52,440 nt of DNA from positions 1-52,440 of IMG/VR virus record IMGVR_UViG_3300032174_000009. One strand, 5' to 3'. The stretch is from a virus (lineage: Duplodnaviria > Caudoviricetes). The notes under the pieces were generated by a model that worked only from the letters and a program-made list of their open reading frames with translations, did not search any database and was not told the DNA's origin. The position numbers and the translations under genes are program-made. Of the stretch, positions 3,787 to 26,974 are shown in pieces. Within the stretch, counting starts at the first letter, position 1; each line of letters begins with the position of its first letter.

Positions 3787-4788
3787 TTAACCTGTCTTAA
3801 TCTCCAGCGCTTCAGCCGCATCCCTCAGATAATCCGGCGAAAACTTAGCGTATACCCGCGAAGTGATCCGGCTGTCAGAGTGCCCGAGAAATGCGGCGAT
3901 ACGATCCATTCCGATTCCGGCCTCGGCCATCCAAGATGCGGCTGAATGACGGAATATATGGGCAGTGACCCATGGCAGCCCGCAGCGCCTTCCGGCGGCT
4001 TGTAGACCGGTCTTAATGCTTTTGACTGGTTTCCCATTCCACTCCACCACAAAGTCCGTCAGTGCTCCCATTTTGGCCTCTTGGAGAGCTGCCATCAAGG
4101 TCCGGTTAATCGGGACTACCGCTCGTCGCTTTTGTCCTGACTGACAAGGTAGGTTCAGATCTATTAAACGGGTCTCGAAATTCACTCTGCCCCACGTCAG
4201 GCCGAGCAAGGCACCAATACGTGCTCCTGTTGTCATGGCTGCAATAACGCAAAGTCGTATGTGCGGGGTGGAACACGATGAAAGGAACCGGTTCGCTTGT
4301 TCCCGTGTCAAACGCAAATCCCTCGGTGGCGATATAGCCGGGCGGGATATGTAAGGCGCCTTGGCTATCAGATTCTTTTTCTCTGCCCATCTTAGCGCGC
4401 TCCTGAGTCGTCCAAGTTCGGTCCAGATTGTGCCAGGTTTGCGACCTTCCATTTCCCGTCTAACGCGATAATCGAAGCAAGCTTGTTCGCTGAGCCCGTC
4501 GGCGGCCATATTGCCAAAGAAAGGAAGGACAGAGCGCCCTTCAAAGCCCATAGTCTGAAAAGCAGGTCGCCCTTTAAGCGTCTCACGATATCCATTCCAG
4601 ACAAGCTCCACCGTTATAGTTTTTGGCCGGTTGGCGATTTCGTATTGCACGGCAAAACTTCGTAGCCCTTGCTCGGCAATCTCATGATTTTGGGTCCGAA
4701 GTGAACATCGGCGGGTAGCACCGCGATCTCGCCATGCTGCGTAGTACCAACCTCGGAAGAGGACGACGCGGAATTTAGGAGGTGACAT
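3787..4788 (-). CDS. int: Tyrosine integrase
   Basis: Catalytic residues in TGARIG, HIFRHS, LGHS and VY. Confidence 0.95.
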   Translation of the reverse strand: MSPPKFRVVLFRGWYYAAWRDRGATRRCSLRTQNHEIAEQGLRSFAVQYEIANRPKTITVELVWNGYRETLKGRPAFQTMGFEGRSVLPFFGNMAADGLSEQACFDYRVRREMEGRKPGTIWTELGRLRSALRWAEKKNLIAKAPYISRPAISPPRDLRLTREQANRFLSSCSTPHIRLCVIAAMTTGARIGALLGLTWGRVNFETRLIDLNLPCQSGQKRRAVVPINRTLMAALQEAKMGALTDFVVEWNGKPVKSIKTGLQAAGRRCGLPWVTAHIFRHSAASWMAEAGIGMDRIAAFLGHSDSRITSRVYAKFSPDYLRDAAEALEIKTG

Positions 4789-7886: not shown

Positions 7887-8102
7887 TCATGCACGTTGTT
7901 CGGCCCTCGCAATGGCCGCTTCGAGACGTCTATATGCACGTTCATGCTCTTCATCTTTAAGCCACCGCGTGGCGCGATAGACATCCTTCGCCGCCCAGAG
8001 CAGCTCATTGCGCTGCGCTTTGATGGCACGATATTCTTCTTCGAGCTTATAGAACGCCTCACGGTGATACTCGCTCATTCTTTCCACTCCCATGACTGTC
8101 AT
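7887..8102 (-). CDS. Hypothetical protein
   Basis: Short helical ORF in the operon. Confidence 0.45.
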   Translation of the reverse strand: MTVMGVERMSEYHREAFYKLEEEYRAIKAQRNELLWAAKDVYRATRWLKDEEHERAYRRLEAAIARAEQRA

Positions 8103-8475
8103 GCCAAACGATGCCGTTTTGATCGCCCCACGCCTGCATGAATGAAATTAGCTCGCTCATCTCTTCCTTCGATAAATCCGACGACCTAAAGCCCCATGGA
8201 AGGAATGTTAACCCGTCCAAAGTGGGGATGTACTGAAGCTCGGCGCCGCACGCGTCCATGAAAATTGCCTTCCATTGATCCGGCGTGTAGCGGCCTCCGA
8301 AGTGCTCCCTTTGCGTGGCTACGTCGGTTAGCATTGCCCACATGCGATCGTTTTGTGGTAGTGTGCGCTTTGCAGCCTTGAACTCAACACGTGTTCCCTT
8401 AGGCGATTCAGCAAGCCAGTGGAGCGCGCGCGCACGCGATAGTGGATCATTGAGAATTACGAGCGCACGGCTCAT
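8059..8475 (-). CDS. ninB: NinB/Orf family recombination protein
   Basis: KRTLPQNDRMWAMLTDVA, WKAIFM, RSSDLSKEEMSELI. Confidence 0.9.
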   Translation of the reverse strand: MSRALVILNDPLSRARALHWLAESPKGTRVEFKAAKRTLPQNDRMWAMLTDVATQREHFGGRYTPDQWKAIFMDACGAELQYIPTLDGLTFLPWGFRSSDLSKEEMSELISFMQAWGDQNGIVWHDSHGSGKNERVSP

Positions 8476-9095
8476 AACGAAAACTCGCCCCTTGCGACGA
8501 CCTTGCTAACTACCTCGTCAAGTTCTGCATTGAATGCATCGATCGCGTCCGACAGCTTTTTAATATATGGTTCGTCGCGTTCCGCGCGCATGATGATTGC
8601 CGGAAAGTCAGGCCAGTAAACAAATAGGTCGATCCATTCACGCTCCGCTATCAACAACTCGCCCTGACATTGCGCTTTGTGCATAGCTGGAAATTCATCC
8701 TTGAGCATGGTTTCGATCATGAGGTGCGGCAGCTTTGTCTTGATCTCAAGCAAGCCGTTCTCGCCAATAAGCGCATCCGGGCTGCATCCGGCTCGACCGT
8801 TGCGGATAAAGCCAACCCGCATCGGCTCCGTATCAGTCATGAAGGCATAGAGCCGGCGCGCGTCTGGCTCCATGGCATGCCCGCGCTCAGTATGAACGTT
8901 TGAAAATGATTCTGAAGGCTGCTTTCCGGTGATGATTTCTCCGGCCAGCTTGTAAAGATAGGTTTGCCGAGTTTTACTCGCCTCGCCGCCAACTCCCTTG
9001 GATAAAACCAATGGAAAGTTCGATGCTGTCGGGAGTCCAATGCGTCGCGCGAACCATTCGTCGGAACCCTGCTCGCAATCGAAAATTTCCATCAT
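8472..9095 (-). CDS. YqaJ/lambda-type exonuclease
   Basis: QGSDEWFARRIGLPTAS, RGHAMEP, CSPD, LEIK and QCQG. Confidence 0.93.
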   Translation of the reverse strand: MMEIFDCEQGSDEWFARRIGLPTASNFPLVLSKGVGGEASKTRQTYLYKLAGEIITGKQPSESFSNVHTERGHAMEPDARRLYAFMTDTEPMRVGFIRNGRAGCSPDALIGENGLLEIKTKLPHLMIETMLKDEFPAMHKAQCQGELLIAEREWIDLFVYWPDFPAIIMRAERDEPYIKKLSDAIDAFNAELDEVVSKVVARGEFSL

Positions 9096-9862
9096 CCGGA
9101 GCTCTTAGCCTTGAGCAGATTCATAGCCGTTCGGAATTGGCTAGCCCGAAGGTCGACAACTGATTCCACCTTGAAAAATGCGAGAAACTTAGTTAAATCC
9201 GCGCCGGTCGATATAAGCTTTTGTCGAATGAGCTCAGCCTGAGAACTGGTTATCGCGCTATCATTCTGGCCGCCCGCGCGATTGCCATCATCGTCCTCGC
9301 TATCGCCAACCGCAAGATTGAAAATCATCTTCAGCAAATAGCGCATGCCGTATGTGATAGCGCTGCCGATCGCATGAGTCTTCGTCATGACATCGCCGCC
9401 TTTGGCGCCCTTGCCATCGGCGGGAATTAACAGCTCAACATCTCGCGAGGCACCCCCCTTATGAGAAATTCGGCAGACAAGGTTTATGAAATTCTCAGTT
9501 AAGACTGGCATCGTGCGGAAGCTTAGAGAGAATCCTTGCTCGGTATAAATCGGCCTGATCGCGCCATCTAGGGCGGCATAGCTGGCATATTTACTTCGCG
9601 TTTGGCTGTTGTCTTTGTCTGCGGCCACGCTCTTCATAGTTGCTTGGGCGATCGCCATCGCTTCGTCGAACAGCCTTTCCTCATCGCGCTTCTGCATCGC
9701 CTGATACATAGCGAACAAGCGATCCATGCGGTCGAGATCATAGTTTGTATCGCCGGCGGCACGCGAGATGATATCCATAAGCACCGCCGCGTCGCGCGGT
9801 TGATCCGGCTGCTTGACTGGCGCGATTTGTTGAGTCTGTTCCTCAACTGGTGGTTTGCTCAT
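9092..9862 (-). CDS. ERF family single-strand annealing recombinase
   Basis: SKYA, GSAITYGMRYLL and EDDDGN motifs; adjacent to the exonuclease. Confidence 0.93.
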   Translation of the reverse strand: MSKPPVEEQTQQIAPVKQPDQPRDAAVLMDIISRAAGDTNYDLDRMDRLFAMYQAMQKRDEERLFDEAMAIAQATMKSVAADKDNSQTRSKYASYAALDGAIRPIYTEQGFSLSFRTMPVLTENFINLVCRISHKGGASRDVELLIPADGKGAKGGDVMTKTHAIGSAITYGMRYLLKMIFNLAVGDSEDDDGNRAGGQNDSAITSSQAELIRQKLISTGADLTKFLAFFKVESVVDLRASQFRTAMNLLKAKSSG

Positions 9863-12469: not shown

Positions 12470-12916
12470 CTATTGTCGTCGTTTTGAATCAGCGAATTGC
12501 CGAGTTAGAAACTCAGCTATCACTTTGCCAGTATGCTTGGGAGTCGAGGTGTCTAAATGAGCGCCTGAAGGTGTGTCGAGGACTCTTAGGACAATTAACG
12601 AAAGCTCAGACGCCTCTTCGTGAGAAAAATCTAGGGCAAGCAACATCCCTTCTAGAGCACCCATAAGCAAATGGCGCCCGTGACCTGACGGAAACCCCAA
12701 AATGTCGTTGGGTTCGACGCCAAGGGCGTCAGCTAAATTGGAAAGTTTGGCAAATTGCAGTGTCCCTCGTCCGCTTAAAATTTGGGACACAGCGTTGCCG
12801 GTGACCCCAAGAACTTTGCCAAGCGCTTCCTGACTCAGCCCCTTGTGGCGCATAAACATACGGATGCGCTCGCCTATTTCCTCAGCCTTGCGATTCAAAT
12901 CAGCCTCGTCAGTCAT
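12470..12916 (-). CDS. CI-like XRE-family repressor
   Basis: IGERIRMFMRHKGLSQEALGKVLGVTGNAVSQILSG HTH, divergent from the rightward operon; no S24 peptidase domain evident. Confidence 0.85.
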   Translation of the reverse strand: MTDEADLNRKAEEIGERIRMFMRHKGLSQEALGKVLGVTGNAVSQILSGRGTLQFAKLSNLADALGVEPNDILGFPSGHGRHLLMGALEGMLLALDFSHEEASELSLIVLRVLDTPSGAHLDTSTPKHTGKVIAEFLTRQFADSKRRQ

Positions 12917-21833: not shown

Positions 21834-22015
21834 TGTCTGATGACTGTGTAAGGAAAAAGCTTGAGCAATTCCTTAGCAAAGACGAGATTCGGGAATGGCT
21901 TGATCAACCTCATTTGCTGCTTAGCAATCAATCTCCAAGTGATTTTATTCGTGCTGGTCGCGACGATGATGTTTTGCGTCTCATTGACTTGGTATTTGAC
22001 AAAAATGTTTTTTAG
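21833..22015 (+). CDS. Small protein resembling the Xre/MbcA/ParS antitoxin C-terminal domain
   Basis: EWLDQPHLLLSNQSPSDFIRAGRDDDVLRLI. Confidence 0.55.
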   Translation: MSDDCVRKKLEQFLSKDEIREWLDQPHLLLSNQSPSDFIRAGRDDDVLRLIDLVFDKNVF

Positions 22016-22291
22016 AAAATGACAGCGCAGATAAACAGTATTGCCTCGATTAATGATGCGCGTCGCGCCGCCGCGAAGGTTTATGCAGCTTATTTCGCCG
22101 GCGCACCGGTTAATGGTATGCTACAAGATGTTGAACTTAGGTTGCTTGAGGCTCTGATGCGCTTATACAGGAAAAGGTGAAGCGTCGCGGGCCCTATCCG
22201 TGCATTGGCTGACCACTACGAGCCAGACGTTTGCTTCAATTTCTGGCGCTTCAGCATACCGCGCGAGCTAGTACGCGGCATGTTCGAAACG

Positions 22292-22588
22292 TCACTTCAA
22301 CAAAAGTTTCTGGGTACGACGGATAATGTCGTATATTTCAGATTCATATTTGTCTATATCGATGGCATTTGCAAAGAGGAAATCTTCGGGCTCTATGCCT
22401 TCTGACTGGTAGTACAGAGCCATGCACGCTAGCTCGACATACCGTGGTATCCGGTGCTCGCCGGCCTCATATGAGTCATAGGCGTGTTGTGATAGGCCAA
22501 GGGCTTTGGCAGCTCTTTCCTTGCTACGTGTGCCGTAGCCTATTCCGAACATGCGCTCACGCCATGCTTTGAGTGATGCGGGGGTCAC
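22292..22588 (-). CDS. XRE/Cro-type HTH regulator terminating the cassette array
   Basis: MTPASLKAWR...AAKALGLS...YEAG...IPRYVELAC. Confidence 0.8.
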   Translation of the reverse strand: MTPASLKAWRERMFGIGYGTRSKERAAKALGLSQHAYDSYEAGEHRIPRYVELACMALYYQSEGIEPEDFLFANAIDIDKYESEIYDIIRRTQKLLLK

Positions 22589-22719
22589 TTCTTGCCCCTC
22601 TTGGCGATCTTACGGCGCAAATTGTTTTTGCCGGTTCCGAAGCATGACGGGAAGCTATACCAATAGTCGCGGTTGAAAGTCTTGTGGCAAACCAAGCATT
22701 TGGCTTCGTTTGTGGTCAT
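22585..22719 (-). CDS. Array cargo: 44-aa protein with CxxC
   Basis: GGAGA RBS immediately after repeat copy 1. Confidence 0.6.
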   Translation of the reverse strand: MTTNEAKCLVCHKTFNRDYWYSFPSCFGTGKNNLRRKIAKRGKK

Positions 22720-22786
22720 TTTCTTTGTCTCCTTTTTATTCGAGCGGGCGCTCGTGTCTACGGCCCAAAGGCCGCAGAGGCTAGCG

Positions 22787-23095
22787 TCAGTAACGCGCCG
22801 TCGTGTACCAATGGGAATCTGCGCACAGGAATTTATTTGGGTCCCATGAATAGATTCCCATCGTGTCCGATGGTTCGTCGCCACCGAAAGTCGATAGATC
22901 GGTTATGTCGATATAGTCTTCGATAGAGCCATCAAGGCCAGTTAGTGTATTAAGTTCGGCGACACGCTCGTCGAGCCTATTTAGATAATCGCATAGCTGT
23001 TGGAGGCTATCTGCCACTATAACCGCCTTTGTATAGTGCGCTATCTCGGTCTCAAGCTGATCGATACGAGTTTGGTCTTCTTCGATATAGGTCAT
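22787..23095 (-). CDS. Array cargo: acidic 102-aa protein
   Basis: GGAGA RBS; stop codon is the repeat TGA. Confidence 0.75.
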   Translation of the reverse strand: MTYIEEDQTRIDQLETEIAHYTKAVIVADSLQQLCDYLNRLDERVAELNTLTGLDGSIEDYIDITDLSTFGGDEPSDTMGIYSWDPNKFLCADSHWYTTARY

Positions 23096-23159
23096 TTTAG
23101 TCTCTCCTTTGTTTCGAGCTGGCGCTCGTATCTGCCGCCAATGGCGGCAGAGGCTAGCG

Positions 23160-23258
23160 TCACTTTCGCACTAAATTCTTGTAGGTTTGAAATCCACACC
23201 TTGCCAAGAATTCGTAGATTTGTTGCAATTCCTCTTCCGTCAGTTTTTCTCTTTTCAT
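23160..23258 (-). CDS. Array cargo: 32-aa peptide
   Basis: MKREKLTEEELQQIYEFLARCGFQTYKNLVRK; RBS present; stop is the repeat TGA. Confidence 0.6.
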   Translation of the reverse strand: MKREKLTEEELQQIYEFLARCGFQTYKNLVRK

Positions 23259-23322
23259 TTTCGTCTCCTTTGATTTCGAGCAGGGCGCTCGTGTATGCCG
23301 CCATCGGCGGCATAGGCTAGCG

Positions 23323-23793
23323 TCAGTTTCCGAAATAGAAGCATCTCGCATACGCGAGCAATATCTCTTCGGTTGATGTGTAGTCTTTTGAGCCTAAGTC
23401 CTCATCACGCCGAGGCCAAAACTCCGTCCACGGGGTGAACCAATCTTGGACTTCGAGCCAAGCCTTTTCAGGCTCGCTATACTCGTTGAGCGTGCCGCGT
23501 ATGCGTACCGCTGGCCCACCAGTGCAGAGCAATATCTGAAACTCGTCAGGATCTTCGGCCTCGCGACCAGGCTCATGCCAGTCACTACGAACCAGCACAG
23601 ACAACGCGTCCTCATGGATCGCTTGCTCTGCGTCCTCAAGGGCCGTTGCCTCTAGGTCAGTTTGGCCTTCGTCTTTGTCCTCTGCGTTGCGCGCAACTTC
23701 GAGGGCCTCGACCATCTCTTTTATGCTGTTGAATTGAGCTTGGCCTTGCTCTTTGGCATTGGCCATTTTGTCTTCAGTCTGTACGTCGGTCAT
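23323..23793 (-). CDS. Array cargo: highly acidic 156-aa protein
   Basis: RBS; stop is the repeat TGA; LLCTGGPAVRI and QDWFTPW segments. Confidence 0.8.
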   Translation of the reverse strand: MTDVQTEDKMANAKEQGQAQFNSIKEMVEALEVARNAEDKDEGQTDLEATALEDAEQAIHEDALSVLVRSDWHEPGREAEDPDEFQILLCTGGPAVRIRGTLNEYSEPEKAWLEVQDWFTPWTEFWPRRDEDLGSKDYTSTEEILLAYARCFYFGN

Positions 23794-23858
23794 TTTCGTC
23801 TCCCTTTATTCGAGCATTGGCGCTCGTGTCTGCGGTCTGGGGACCGCAGAGGCTAGCG

Positions 23859-24095
23859 TCAGTCGTCGCTTCTACGCTGGTTTAACCGCTCCCAATTGCG
23901 CTTGTCATAATCGGCGGAACAGTTCCACACTGGCATTTTGTTTTCTTGTCGCATCATGTCCGTTGCGGTTCTCAGCGGATCGGTCTTTGCCCAAACAGCG
24001 TTTGGACTTGATGGGTATGAATAGCGGGTGCGCTTGGTTTCGGTATCGCCGGCCACGAATGAGCCATCTTTGCCGTAATGATAAACGATTGCCAT
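23859..24095 (-). CDS. Array cargo: 78-aa protein
   Basis: GGAGA RBS; stop is the repeat TGA. Confidence 0.7.
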   Translation of the reverse strand: MAIVYHYGKDGSFVAGDTETKRTRYSYPSSPNAVWAKTDPLRTATDMMRQENKMPVWNCSADYDKRNWERLNQRRSDD

Positions 24096-24270
24096 TTTCG
24101 TCTCTCCTATTTATGTTCCGGCGGCTCCGTGCTGGTCACGTGTGAGCACTAGCTGATACGTGATAGTTGGCACGGTCTGCCCAGCCGCCGTCTTTCGCTC
24201 GATTGGTTACGGGCTTTGTTTCGAGCTTTGGCGCTCGTGTCTACGGCCCCGGAGGCCGCAGAGGCTAGCG

Positions 24271-24453
24271 TCATAGGTAGCATTTAGAAACCCTAAAGCG
24301 GCATTCGTCACCGTTGCAATTCATGCGCTTGGCAATGCGTTGCAGCTCGCGGTGCGGATAGCCCTTAGAAGTTTCAATAACCCCGTCAGGCACACATGAG
24401 CCTCGCGGATATGAAAATATAGCCCAGACCTTGTCTTTTGCTTTCTTAGTCAT
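24271..24453 (-). CDS. Array cargo: 60-aa protein
   Basis: GGGAGA RBS; stop is the repeat TGA. Confidence 0.65.
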   Translation of the reverse strand: MTKKAKDKVWAIFSYPRGSCVPDGVIETSKGYPHRELQRIAKRMNCNGDECRFRVSKCYL

Positions 24454-24532
24454 TGTAGTCTCTCCCTTGTGGTTAGAAGCTTCGCTATGGGCCGCAACGC
24501 GCGGCCCATGCCGAAACTCAAACTTCGTAGCG

Positions 24533-24658
24533 TCAGTCATGTTTGATAAGTTTCGCCATTAAAAGGCCGTCGATGCGAAGAACTTCCGCAAGAACGTATC
24601 CCTGACGGATGAAATAGGCGAATTCTTTAGAGGCGAGGATCTCAAACCGTATTGTCAT
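24533..24658 (-). CDS. Array cargo: 41-aa peptide
   Basis: MTIRFEILASKEFAYFIRQGYVLAEVLRIDGLLMAKLIKHD; RBS; ends on TGACGCTA. Confidence 0.6.
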   Translation of the reverse strand: MTIRFEILASKEFAYFIRQGYVLAEVLRIDGLLMAKLIKHD

Positions 24659-24868
24659 TTTCGTCTCCTTTTGTTTCGAGCTGCGCGACCAGCCTCAAAT
24701 CCGCGTTGCCATGCCAAAACTATTTCACGGTTGAGCGTGGTTTGGCGCGGTTGGCGTATAGGCTTAGGGCGAAGCGCTTCTTGATATCCTTGGTCATAGG
24801 CGCGATTTAATCTAGCCAGATCAGTTTCCAGGCGCTCGTGTATGCCGCCATAGCGGCATAGGCTAGCG

Positions 24869-25132
24869 TCAGTTTAGCCCAACCCTTTCGCCGATCGTCG
24901 GGTCATCGCCCCAATGATATCGGTCATATTCTTGCCGCCCCGCCCAGAGGCCTCGGTCATACGCTTGGCCCCAAACGCCTGCCTTCTGCTCGTGAGTGGC
25001 GCGGCTTTCGTAGTCTTGCTTGTCGGTCAAACCGTCTGCGAAGCCTTCCTTGTAACCTGGCACATTTGACCAGCGCTCGGCTTCGGTTGGAAAATGTATT
25101 TTCGTCATCGTCTTGATTTTCCGATTTGTCAT
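24869..25132 (-). CDS. Array cargo: 87-aa protein with YxxG...AYDRG motifs
   Basis: GGAGA RBS; stop is the repeat TGA. Confidence 0.7.
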   Translation of the reverse strand: MTNRKIKTMTKIHFPTEAERWSNVPGYKEGFADGLTDKQDYESRATHEQKAGVWGQAYDRGLWAGRQEYDRYHWGDDPTIGERVGLN

Positions 25133-25398
25133 TGTCGTCTCCTTTTTTCTGCACCGTGAGTGCATTGCAGCGGGCTCCGGTAGCTTCTAGGCCGGCCGAG
25201 TTTTCAGTCTGTGCCACCTCGTGTCCATCTGTGCTGCGTTTGCTTCTTTGTATCTGGTGGCTGAGCTTCGTGATCTGGTAGCCGCCCGAAAGCCCGCTGC
25301 AATGCATTCTTCTTTCCGGACCGGGTCTGAGCCGGAGCCTTAGGAGGTGCTTTTGGGGGCCTTTTAGTCTTTCCCATTTCCCTACTGCCTATAATAGT

Positions 25399-25426
25399 AA
25401 TATAAGCAAATTTGCGGGAATGTCAA
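25399..25426 (-). promoter_or_regulatory. Sigma70-like promoter driving the cassette array
   Basis: TTGACA-N16-TATATT in an AT-rich intergenic region. Confidence 0.65.
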
Positions 25427-25555
25427 GCGAATAAGGGTGCCACGCAAGAATAATTTGCTTTTTCGATCACTAATTGTTACAAGAGGCGTGGCGTTGCTTG
25501 AATATTACTGGGCTAATCAGGACACCATAAACCCCGCTATTATTTCTTTGGTTGT

Positions 25556-25888
25556 GTGCGCGATTATCTTATTCAGGCCGATGTAATGCGATTTTGGTTA
25601 GTCGTCATTGTCCTGATTGTGTTTTTCATTCTGTTGCCGATCGGTTGGAGCATCTTTGAGTCTAAGATACAACAGGCGAGACCAGCACCATATGAATGGG
25701 AATTGCGACGCGAAAATGAGATTTGGCCAGGCTTAATTGCATATGTCCCAAGGCGTCACCACATGCGGCGCGCACACAAGTTACCGAGTCTCCCCTTGGT
25801 CTTGCTCAAGTGCTACGACCGCGAGGGCAAGCAGATCACGCCGATCCCCAAGGGATGCACGGATTTGTTTATCGAGCGGGATAAGTGA
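25556..25888 (+). CDS. Membrane-anchored hypothetical protein
   Basis: N-terminal transmembrane segment. Confidence 0.5.
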   Translation: MRDYLIQADVMRFWLVVIVLIVFFILLPIGWSIFESKIQQARPAPYEWELRRENEIWPGLIAYVPRRHHMRRAHKLPSLPLVLLKCYDREGKQITPIPKGCTDLFIERDK

Positions 25889-26728: not shown

Positions 26729-26974
26729 ATGATTACAGATCCGTTTCCCGACTTGCCGCGCCGAGTTCTCTTTGTGGACAAGGTTCGCAGCCCGAATCAA
26801 ATCGGCACTGTTCCAGCGTGGACAGTGAGCGATGTAACGAAACCTGTAACGAAACCTGTAACGAAACCTGTAACGAAACCTCGCGGCGGCCGTCCGGCTA
26901 AGGGCGATAAACCAATGACTGTCGCGCATCGTGTGAGGTTGCATCGCGCGGCTAAGAAGCTTGGAAGGGGTTAA
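26729..26974 (+). CDS. Small basic protein with (VTKP)4 repeat and GRP motif
   Basis: 12-bp unit TGTAACGAAACC repeated four times at 26833-26880; RGGRP AT-hook-like motif. Confidence 0.55.
   Translation: MITDPFPDLPRRVLFVDKVRSPNQIGTVPAWTVSDVTKPVTKPVTKPVTKPRGGRPAKGDKPMTVAHRVRLHRAAKKLGRG

Follow-up and report, generated by a model that had tools for sequence, protein, structure and literature searches.

A reading frame without a start codon divides one copy of a linker repeat in the accessory operon of a temperate phage

In a temperate tailed soil phage, one copy of a repeat that joins tiny genes is divided by a stretch of open coding sequence that has no start codon. How did this DNA come to lie within the repeat, and does the repeat mark a point at which foreign genes are captured? 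The window is the whole contig of the IMG/VR virus record IMGVR_UViG_3300032174_000009 (52,440 nucleotides, nt), and the array of repeats is read on its minus strand. We prefer to read the array as a shuffling array of the promoter-early stem-loop (PeSL) type. The open reading frame (ORF) in the divided copy, here called X, would be a stranded and probably untranslated piece of cargo, left by untidy shuffling and surviving at a permissive spot. We put the probability of this explanation at about 0.55.

Six linker repeats connect the cistrons of a single operon from 25132 to 22295. Each repeat opens with the stop codon of one gene and closes at the ATG of the next. The linker is about 70 nt long and begins with TGACGCTAGCCT, which carries two in-frame stops (TGA, CGC, TAG). 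This is followed by a GC-rich hairpin of 7-9 base pairs (bp), by A(C/T)ACGAGCGCC, by a variable spot of 1-3 nt and by GCTCGAA(A/T). The end is an A-rich stretch with the Shine-Dalgarno (SD) sequence AAGGAGA, and then the ATG. CGAGC and GCTCG form a small 5-bp inverted repeat that flanks the variable spot, and the 3' flank of the hairpin, ACACGAGCGCC, is invariant. The 12-mer TGACGCTAGCCT occurs six times in the window, always on the minus strand, against 0.16 occurrences expected. The 9-mer ACGAGCGCC occurs seven times against 0.66 expected, and six of the seven are within the array. Copies C (23791-23861), E (23093-23162) and F (22717-22789) are intact by alignment and by the covariance model, as is copy D (23256-23325). 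In copy B (24214-24273) the variable spot is intact (AAA) and the linker is interrupted after GCTCGAAACAAAG. Between GAGCGCC and GCTCG, the five copies with an intact spot have the spacers AAA, AAT, CT, A and C.

The sixth copy is divided. Its 5' half (H5, 24831-24871) has the tandem in-frame stops TGA-CGC-TAG, a 7-bp hairpin and the invariant ACACGAGCGCC. Its 3' half (H3, 24656-24681) has GCTCGAAA, the SD AAGGAGA and the ATG of gene 2. Between the halves, the usual 1-3 nt are replaced by an insert of 149 nt (24682-24830), the body of an RMF-like ORF. An earlier sequence-only reading had described such a replacement exactly at the variable position, with an intact downstream half and an open frame lacking an ATG and a ribosome-binding site. 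The minus-strand reading and the linker alignment agree with that description throughout. The downstream half is complete at 24681-24656, and the X frame runs open over 72 codons between the TAA at 24876-24874, one nt before the gene 1 stop, and the TGA at 24657-24655. These codons include no ATG, GTG or TTG, and there is no usable SD. ORF X itself (24655-24831) has 58 codons plus TGA and begins with CTG. Its last eight codons come from the ribosome-site half of the linker, and its stop overlaps the gene 2 ATG (ATGA). The X frame is +1 relative to gene 1 and remains open through the whole 5' half, whereas another frame of the insert stretch has six stops. The covariance model scores the split copy at 46.6 bits against 71-74 bits for the five intact copies of the window. 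The RNA fold of the split copy gave a z-score of 0.05, so that the insert is not an unusually structured RNA. Both halves are most similar to copy D. A read joint that "skips 149" was considered as an insert-free variant and rejected, because it is copy D of the same contig aligned to the split copy with loose ends. At its beginning, the insert has an 18-nt stretch similar to the final 9 nt of gene 5 joined to the start of the copy D 5' half. This alignment (score 10) was noticed post hoc and is reached by 0.7% of genome 25-mers; it may be an extra scar, and we regard it as an unexplained hint.

What does the insert encode? We searched with P0001, the 58-codon part of the X frame that begins at the junction. 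Against the Pfam family PF04957 (RMF), X scores 28.2 bits (E 2e-6), a marginal pass of the cut-off of 27.9 by 0.3 bits. This score is the sum of two stretches that both match profile positions about 4-26. Against NCBIfam NF011162, X scores 21.3 bits (E 1.8e-4) over positions 3-46/47, and the curated cut-off of 40 is not reached. On these profile scores, X is RMF-like and not an RMF equivalog. The motif aromatic-x-x-G-aromatic appears twice in this protein of about 55 amino acids. An exhaustive HMMER search of 1.84 billion representatives (E up to 0.001) returned P0002 as the sole homologue (E 1.7e-5, 52% identity). P0002, from a contig of 947 nt, has 145 amino acids and three RMF-like stretches in one chain, with a PF04957 score of 28.8 bits. 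Gene 1 and X are weak paralogues (BLASTP E 0.001, 32% identity over 41 amino acids).

A single-sequence AlphaFold model of X is a two-helix hairpin with a mean pLDDT of 84. No solved structure matched X by sequence, and Foldseek with the model returned no matches. The VIA wide structure search with the model gave only generic coiled-coil rows (Z up to 4.4). In the protein atlas, X gave scores up to 0.84; an RMF cluster took rank 6 there, which we treat as no more than a lead. A word-based protein search with X gave no candidate, and of 59 pattern matches in the viral-contig search none was confirmed. The likeness to the upstream cargo protein that had been noticed from the sequence alone is real but weak, and the profile searches support the likeness to RMF. 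The label "fragment" does not hold. Since the match to NF011162 covers positions 3-46/47, X spans nearly the whole RMF-type domain and is not a fragment of a donor gene. The insert is thus essentially a whole small RMF/CrpP-like domain. In the phage collection, tblastn with X gave no match at E up to 1. Two RMF-like genes in one phage operon hint that the phage may interfere with host ribosome hibernation; a literature search on RMF/CrpP and prophages listed nothing relevant.

Is X translated? No ORF of 25 amino acids or more that begins with ATG, GTG or TTG was found in the X frame. The in-frame near-cognate codons are ATA at 24843, CTG at 24831 and CTG at 24819, with no others. For these three, the best anti-SD pairing ranges from -3.3 to -4.8 kcal/mol, with spacings of 0, 12 and 6 nt. 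Genes 1 to 9 pair at -7.3 to -8.7 kcal/mol with spacings of 5-8 nt, and the leader ORF at -5.8 kcal/mol with a spacing of 0. The CTG at 24831 is the position where the profile alignment would put a start codon. X has neither of the two marks of an ordinary gene, a start codon and a ribosome-binding site. Because there is no ATG, GTG or TTG and no usable SD, ORF X is probably untranslated, and would in that case be a relic, young and still intact, and not a working gene.

The gene 1 stop, directly upstream, also bears on this question. P0004, the only homologue of gene 1, with 70 amino acids and from a metagenome contig of 7,287 nt, has 15 C-terminal residues identical to those of gene 1 and the same stop. 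The gene 1 stop is therefore native. Overall, gene 1 and P0004 are 48% identical, yet the 15-residue C-terminus (gene 1 3' end, 24869-24916) is fully shared. Recombination may have left a joint within the gene, or the nucleotides that directly precede the linker may be constrained. The viral-contig search with P0004 gave no locus, and the cluster look-up gave no names. Two further candidates were rejected. One was insertion of H5 into a two-domain gene: the frames would become one if 40 nt were removed, but P0004 terminates at the stop of gene 1. Bypassing between two AAACTGA copies 48 nt apart fails because landing meets the same TGA.

To compare the locus with others, we used DNA pattern scans. 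Linker relatives were obtained in three IMG/VR genomes, G001 (43 kb), G002 (42 kb) and G003 (71 kb), and in six metagenome contigs, L098, L099, L100, L101, L102 and L103. Some of these are redundant: L099 equals L101 over the common stretch, L102 matches G003 and L103 matches G001. Pattern matches in three alphaproteobacterial records (L119-L121) were rejected as likely chance, having no hairpin and no second copy; the match in L127 was likewise rejected as chance. The linkers of the relatives are 75-94% identical to those of the window by blastn. The non-linker DNA in common comprises the promoter/leader region 25481-25321, a 32-nt leader stretch (24519-24488), a structured element of about 120 nt (24216-24090), gene 9 and the DNA beyond gene 9, and nothing else. 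When the 11 array proteins were compared with the loci of the relatives by tblastn, real matches were obtained only for the leader ORF and gene 9. X gave a weak match in G002 (E 0.01, 36% identity), away from the G002 linker. A direct comparison of X with G001 and G002 returned only a weak G002 match with two stops, and a PF04957 scan of G001-G003 only a sub-threshold match with a stop, in G001. Each relative has its own distinct small ORFs between the linkers. Compared with L099 and L102, the window leader carries two extra blocks, at about 25320-24520 (gene 1, X and gene 2) and at about 24487-24217 (gene 3 and copy B). No DNA match to 22200-25400 was found in the phage or plasmid collections.

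G001 (L103:4976-5043) and G002 (L023:3001-3084), which are complete phage genomes, have a single linker copy each, with identical flanks. These two genomes have no other DNA in common with the window operon, and the G002 hairpin is enlarged. Thus, the linker exists and is conserved outside arrays.

The linker itself was analyzed in an alignment (A1) of 12 copies, of which the window supplied five and relatives the other seven, and the covariance model was built from intact copies. Hairpin 1 shows two-sided changes in five of its nine pairs. The whole tested structure is 97.6% paired in A1 and hairpin 1 alone 99.1%, values reached by none of 500 shuffles. Five G-U or U-G cells occur on the sense strand, and several of the G-U pairs are sense-only. 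The model scores the sense strand of the intact window copies at 71-74 bits against 11.7-31 bits for their antisense. The second inverted repeat shows no covariation in A1; its sequence is invariant and so gives no evidence for or against pairing. A promoter scan found no promoter-like site on the operon strand within any linker, and a terminator scan found no terminator-like site there; the stem-loop covaries and has no T-run after it. Rfam gave no matches at E up to 1 over 22000-25600 on both strands, a range that covers the linkers and the structured element, and a ribozyme or nut-like element was rejected for this reason. Because of the hairpin covariation, the sense-strand asymmetry, the lack of an internal promoter-like or terminator-like site and the lack of an Rfam match, we take the linker to be an RNA element that lies between the cistrons of a polycistronic mRNA. 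The flanks are invariant and single-stranded, which suggests that an RNA-binding or processing factor may recognize them.

Is the variable spot a capture point, as the sequence-only reading had proposed? The covariance-model search gave 15 copies in total, six sense copies in the window and nine good copies in relatives. The latter are one each in G001, G002, G003/L102, L098 and L099/L101, and three in L100; there is in addition one partial copy in L099. The split at GAGCGCC^GCTCG is present in one of the six window copies and in none of the nine from relatives, so the survey of homologous arrays produced no second insert at this position. Joints were found elsewhere in the linker. After the stop of gene 2, only the first 8 nt of H5 (TGACGCTA) remain before leader-type sequence begins. 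Copy B and copy b of L100 are joined to the structured element after GCTCG(A/G)AA..AAG. Hairpin 1 is replaced in the last linker of L099, and the L098 linker is 2 nt short at the start of its 3' half. Among the genes in or beside the operon, Pfam gave no recombinase match; the only Phage_integrase match is at 3790-4788, in the lysogeny region.

L099 provides another rearrangement. In its 388-425 region, on the minus strand just upstream of a full linker, there is a 10-codon ORF with its own SD and ATG. The 3' part of this ORF matches the 3' end of a 62-amino-acid gene that is intact in L100. From these alignments, the ORF is a deletion remnant that keeps both expression signals, a mirror image of X. 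Together with the replaced hairpin 1 of L099, the truncated H5 at gene 2 and the 2-nt loss in L098, this remnant indicates that untidy rearrangement is common in these linker arrays.

A dedicated capture site is disfavoured because none of the nine relatives' copies is split there, the other joints are elsewhere, there is no adjoining recombinase and the spacer varies from 1 to 3 nt. The sample is small (15 copies), and within it the capture-point proposal was not supported. The scattered joints, the lack of a recombinase and the variable spacer fit general or microhomology-level recombination plus selection and not a site-specific system. We favour the view that the linker is unconstrained at the variable spot and nowhere else, so that a rearrangement there would spare both functional halves. 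The split arrangement probably survived because the upstream hairpin and the gene 2 ribosome site were left intact.

Based on these results, the preferred explanation runs as follows. In the mRNA, the linker would act as punctuation that supplies a stop, a 3' hairpin and a ribosome site. In the DNA, it would act as a homology patch for the swap, gain or loss of ORF cassettes. The recombination may be general or relaxed, by Erf, YqaJ and NinB of the phage or by host functions. X has neither a ribosome-site half nor a stop-hairpin half of its own; upstream of it is the hairpin half of the gene 1 linker, and downstream the ribosome-site half of the gene 2 linker. This state could be reached by illegitimate, microhomology-level events in which its own linker halves were lost, or by direct insertion. 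In route (a), X would once have been a normal cassette. A small deletion would have taken the ribosome-site half, and a 2-nt microhomology would be compatible with it had the spacer been T, the base present in L099. A second deletion would have taken the C-terminal codons of X along with its stop-hairpin half. At the right joint, GCTCG is preceded by CGCGCA, similar to the GCGCCA that precedes GCTCG in the copy at 23162, which bears on this route. In route (b), a linker that had been intact would have received a naked ORF in one insertion. The simpler of the two is route (b), and the resemblance of both halves to copy D would be expected if one linker was split at a later time; the many remnants among the related arrays agree with route (a).

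Several points weigh against this explanation. To lose both of its linker halves, X would have to undergo two independent events with end points at one position inside the linker. One insertion at the variable spot is the more economical route and is also what a capture point predicts, and the likeness of both split halves to copy D fits one formerly intact linker. The proposed history of X is read from this single locus. The RMF assignment is marginal: the narrow Pfam pass comes from two half-motif matches, and the NCBIfam score falls short of its cut-off. The ORF is intact over 58 codons, and its complete domain is trimmed almost exactly at both ends. This intactness and the stop overlapping the gene 2 ATG would fit a coupled functional gene as well as a very young relic.

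Unconventional expression of X is the alternative that we take most seriously, though we consider it unlikely. X might be initiated at the CTG at 24831 or 24819, or a +1 shift at AAC-TGA-C of gene 1 might produce a gene 1-X fusion with several RMF-like motifs. The overlapping stop of X would then couple gene 2 translation to X. The X frame is indeed +1 to gene 1 and open from one nt before the gene 1 stop, and the three-motif chain of P0002, with the weak paralogy of gene 1, is a natural precedent for such a fusion. The ORF is moreover domain-complete, and its two-helix model is confident. However, no usable SD precedes any near-cognate codon, P0004 ends at the stop of gene 1, and AAC before TGA should re-pair poorly in the +1 frame. 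If the linker were instead a dedicated capture site, the variable spot within CGAGC/GCTCG would be a crossover point that takes promoterless ORFs, like an integron att site, and X would be freshly captured. The insert lies exactly at the variable spot, flanked by the 5-bp inverted repeat, the likeness of both halves to copy D is what a single insertion predicts, and the invariance of the linker flanks across the otherwise unrelated G001 and G002 would suit a specific recognition factor. We nevertheless consider it improbable. The split is confined to one window copy, the other joints lie at four other linker positions, and a spacer of 1-3 nt is unlike a fixed crossover spacer. In addition, the sole integrase belongs to the lysogeny module, about 20 kb from the operon, no covariation is seen in the second inverted repeat, and the G-U pairs and strand asymmetry indicate an element that acts at the RNA level.

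A combined version is slightly less probable still. Here the linker would be a modular docking element with separable stop-hairpin and ribosome-site modules, whose inverted-repeat loop is a preferred entry for signal-less ORFs. Capture would be integron-like and recombinase-independent, and X would be expressed, perhaps fused to its paralogue gene 1 by a +1 shift. Least credible of all is an assembly artefact, a chimeric join at short repeats during metagenome assembly. In its favour, the contig is metagenome-assembled and has six near-identical short repeats. Against this, a separately built public contig (run X1) contains 24300-25300 in one piece with no differences, and 0.99 of the sampled words are present in run X2 from a second study. 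Both runs possibly come from the source material and are therefore not independent confirmation. The junction sequence common to the split copy and copy D is also short.

The operon that carries the array lies on the minus strand between the replication genes and the packaging genes of the phage. By Pfam, the window is a temperate tailed phage with a tyrosine integrase (3790-4788) and a CI-like helix-turn-helix (HTH) repressor (12473-12916). Other Pfam matches in the window are SSB, ThyX, helicase, primase, large terminase and portal. A recombination set is encoded at 8062-9862 and consists of NinB (8062-8475), a YqaJ-type exonuclease (8475-9095) and Erf (9095-9862). This set of the phage's own is relevant to the cassette exchange that short linkers could drive. 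The operon has the order promoter, small basic leader ORF, eight tiny genes (32-156 amino acids) and an HTH gene ending at 22292. A single predicted sigma-70-type promoter (25399-25426; TTGACA, a 16-nt spacer and TATATT, 11 of 12 matches) drives the whole accessory operon.

The first ORF after the promoter is the leader ORF (25204-25377), with 57 amino acids, small and very basic. Its N-terminal ~19 amino acids are conserved in L099/L101 (tblastn to L099, E 7e-7), followed by complete divergence, and the remainder is window-specific. The promoter/leader region at 25481-25321 is 81% identical to L099, and the DNA homology stops at 25321, within the leader ORF. Gene 1 (24869-25132), with 87 amino acids, has its own strong SD and its own stop. 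Gene 2 (24533-24658) has 41 amino acids. Gene 3 (24271-24453) has 60 amino acids, counted from an ATG at 24453 that follows an SD. Gene 9 (22292-22588), which closes the operon, encodes the HTH protein and, apart from the leader ORF, is the sole array protein common to the relatives. After gene 9, at 22245-22294 on the minus strand, there is a degenerate 5' half alone, with TGACG, a 9-bp hairpin with one G-U pair, and the ending GAAGCGCC. No ribosome-site half follows it, and the covariance model misses it at E up to 5. Outside the operon, a perfect tandem 12-nt repeat in four copies (26833-26880) lies inside the ORF 26729-26974 and encodes a repeated four-residue motif.

The structured RNA-like element of about 120 nt lies at 24096-24216 on the minus strand, between copy B and the SD of gene 4, and is 82-89% identical in the blastn alignments. 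It is also present at L099:417-539, L100:829-942 and L102:4673-4793. Its fold is a long irregular hairpin (z-score -3.67) with one compensatory pair among four sequences and no Rfam match. The relatives have it in the operon leader, ahead of the first gene; the window and L100 have it within a linker, just upstream of a gene SD.

If our preferred explanation is true, the split copy is no new mechanism and is a clean snapshot of the assembly and decay of a phage accessory operon. A portable linker of stop, hairpin and ribosome site, kept in phages whose cargo is unrelated, would permit the exchange of tiny ORFs without loss of their expression. Untidy events would strand genes that gene callers miss, because these genes have no start codon. 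The covariance model of the linker could be used as a probe for fast-turnover phage cargo genes in soil metagenomes, and with enough arrays it would let a preference for the variable spot be assessed.

How does this locus compare with known systems? Like the Rmf-CrpP proteins, X has about 55 amino acids, a profile match over almost the full length and two predicted helices. Unlike them, it is phage-encoded, has no start codon and is below the NF011162 cut-off (21.3 against 40 bits). Integron arrays consist of promoterless small ORFs behind one upstream promoter, with an imperfect inverted repeat (attC) after each and fast turnover of cargo. The window operon is superficially alike, as a single-promoter array of small ORFs with inverted-repeat elements and turning-over cargo. 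Unlike an integron, it has no integron integrase or attI beside it, judging from Pfam matches of the neighbouring genes. Its linker supplies a stop, a hairpin and an SD and is an RNA element on the sense strand, and insertion does not recur at a fixed point (none of the nine relatives' copies, a small sample).

In Cluster K mycobacteriophages, many start codons are directly preceded by a conserved sequence, the start-associated sequence or SAS (Pope et al. 2011, PMC3203893). About half of the SAS also have an upstream inverted repeat with a variable spacer (extended SAS, ESAS), and a role in translation is suspected in the portion of that paper at hand (PMC3203893). The window linkers are similar in that a ribosome site is joined to an upstream inverted repeat. 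They differ in sequence and host group. Furthermore, the SAS are dispersed through the genome and go with certain gene families, as far as the available portion describes them, whereas the linkers are arrayed between changing cargo and include the stop codon of the preceding gene.

The closest model is the PeSL cassettes of T4-type phages, in which a stem-loop and ribosome-site motif flanks tiny, mostly orphan ORFs (Arbiol et al. 2010, PMC2839356). Related T4-type phages differ there by whole ORFs between the motifs in a variable region, and a strong sigma-70-like promoter and a terminator function make each cassette its own transcription unit (PMC2839356). The portion of that paper available does not describe a PeSL motif split by an ORF without a start or stop (PMC2839356). 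As in the PeSL cassettes so far as that portion describes them, the repeats of the window flank small orphan ORFs that differ between related phages, which is the pattern of modular shuffling. A further mark of PeSL cassettes is the mini-circle that arises when the flanking repeats recombine. Comeau et al. (2014) reportedly also treated the PeSL cassettes of T4-type phages. In contrast to those cassettes, the window linkers have no promoter-like site, and the only strong promoter (11/12) is upstream of the operon. The sequences are unrelated, and the window phage is temperate and much smaller. The array falls outside the PeSL definition, since no promoter-like site was found in its repeats; the stem-loop is present, and the terminator scan did not score it as a terminator. 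On the available part of the PeSL description, the linker thus differs from a PeSL in lying in a temperate phage and in being, as predicted from the scans, purely intercistronic, with neither promoter nor terminator.

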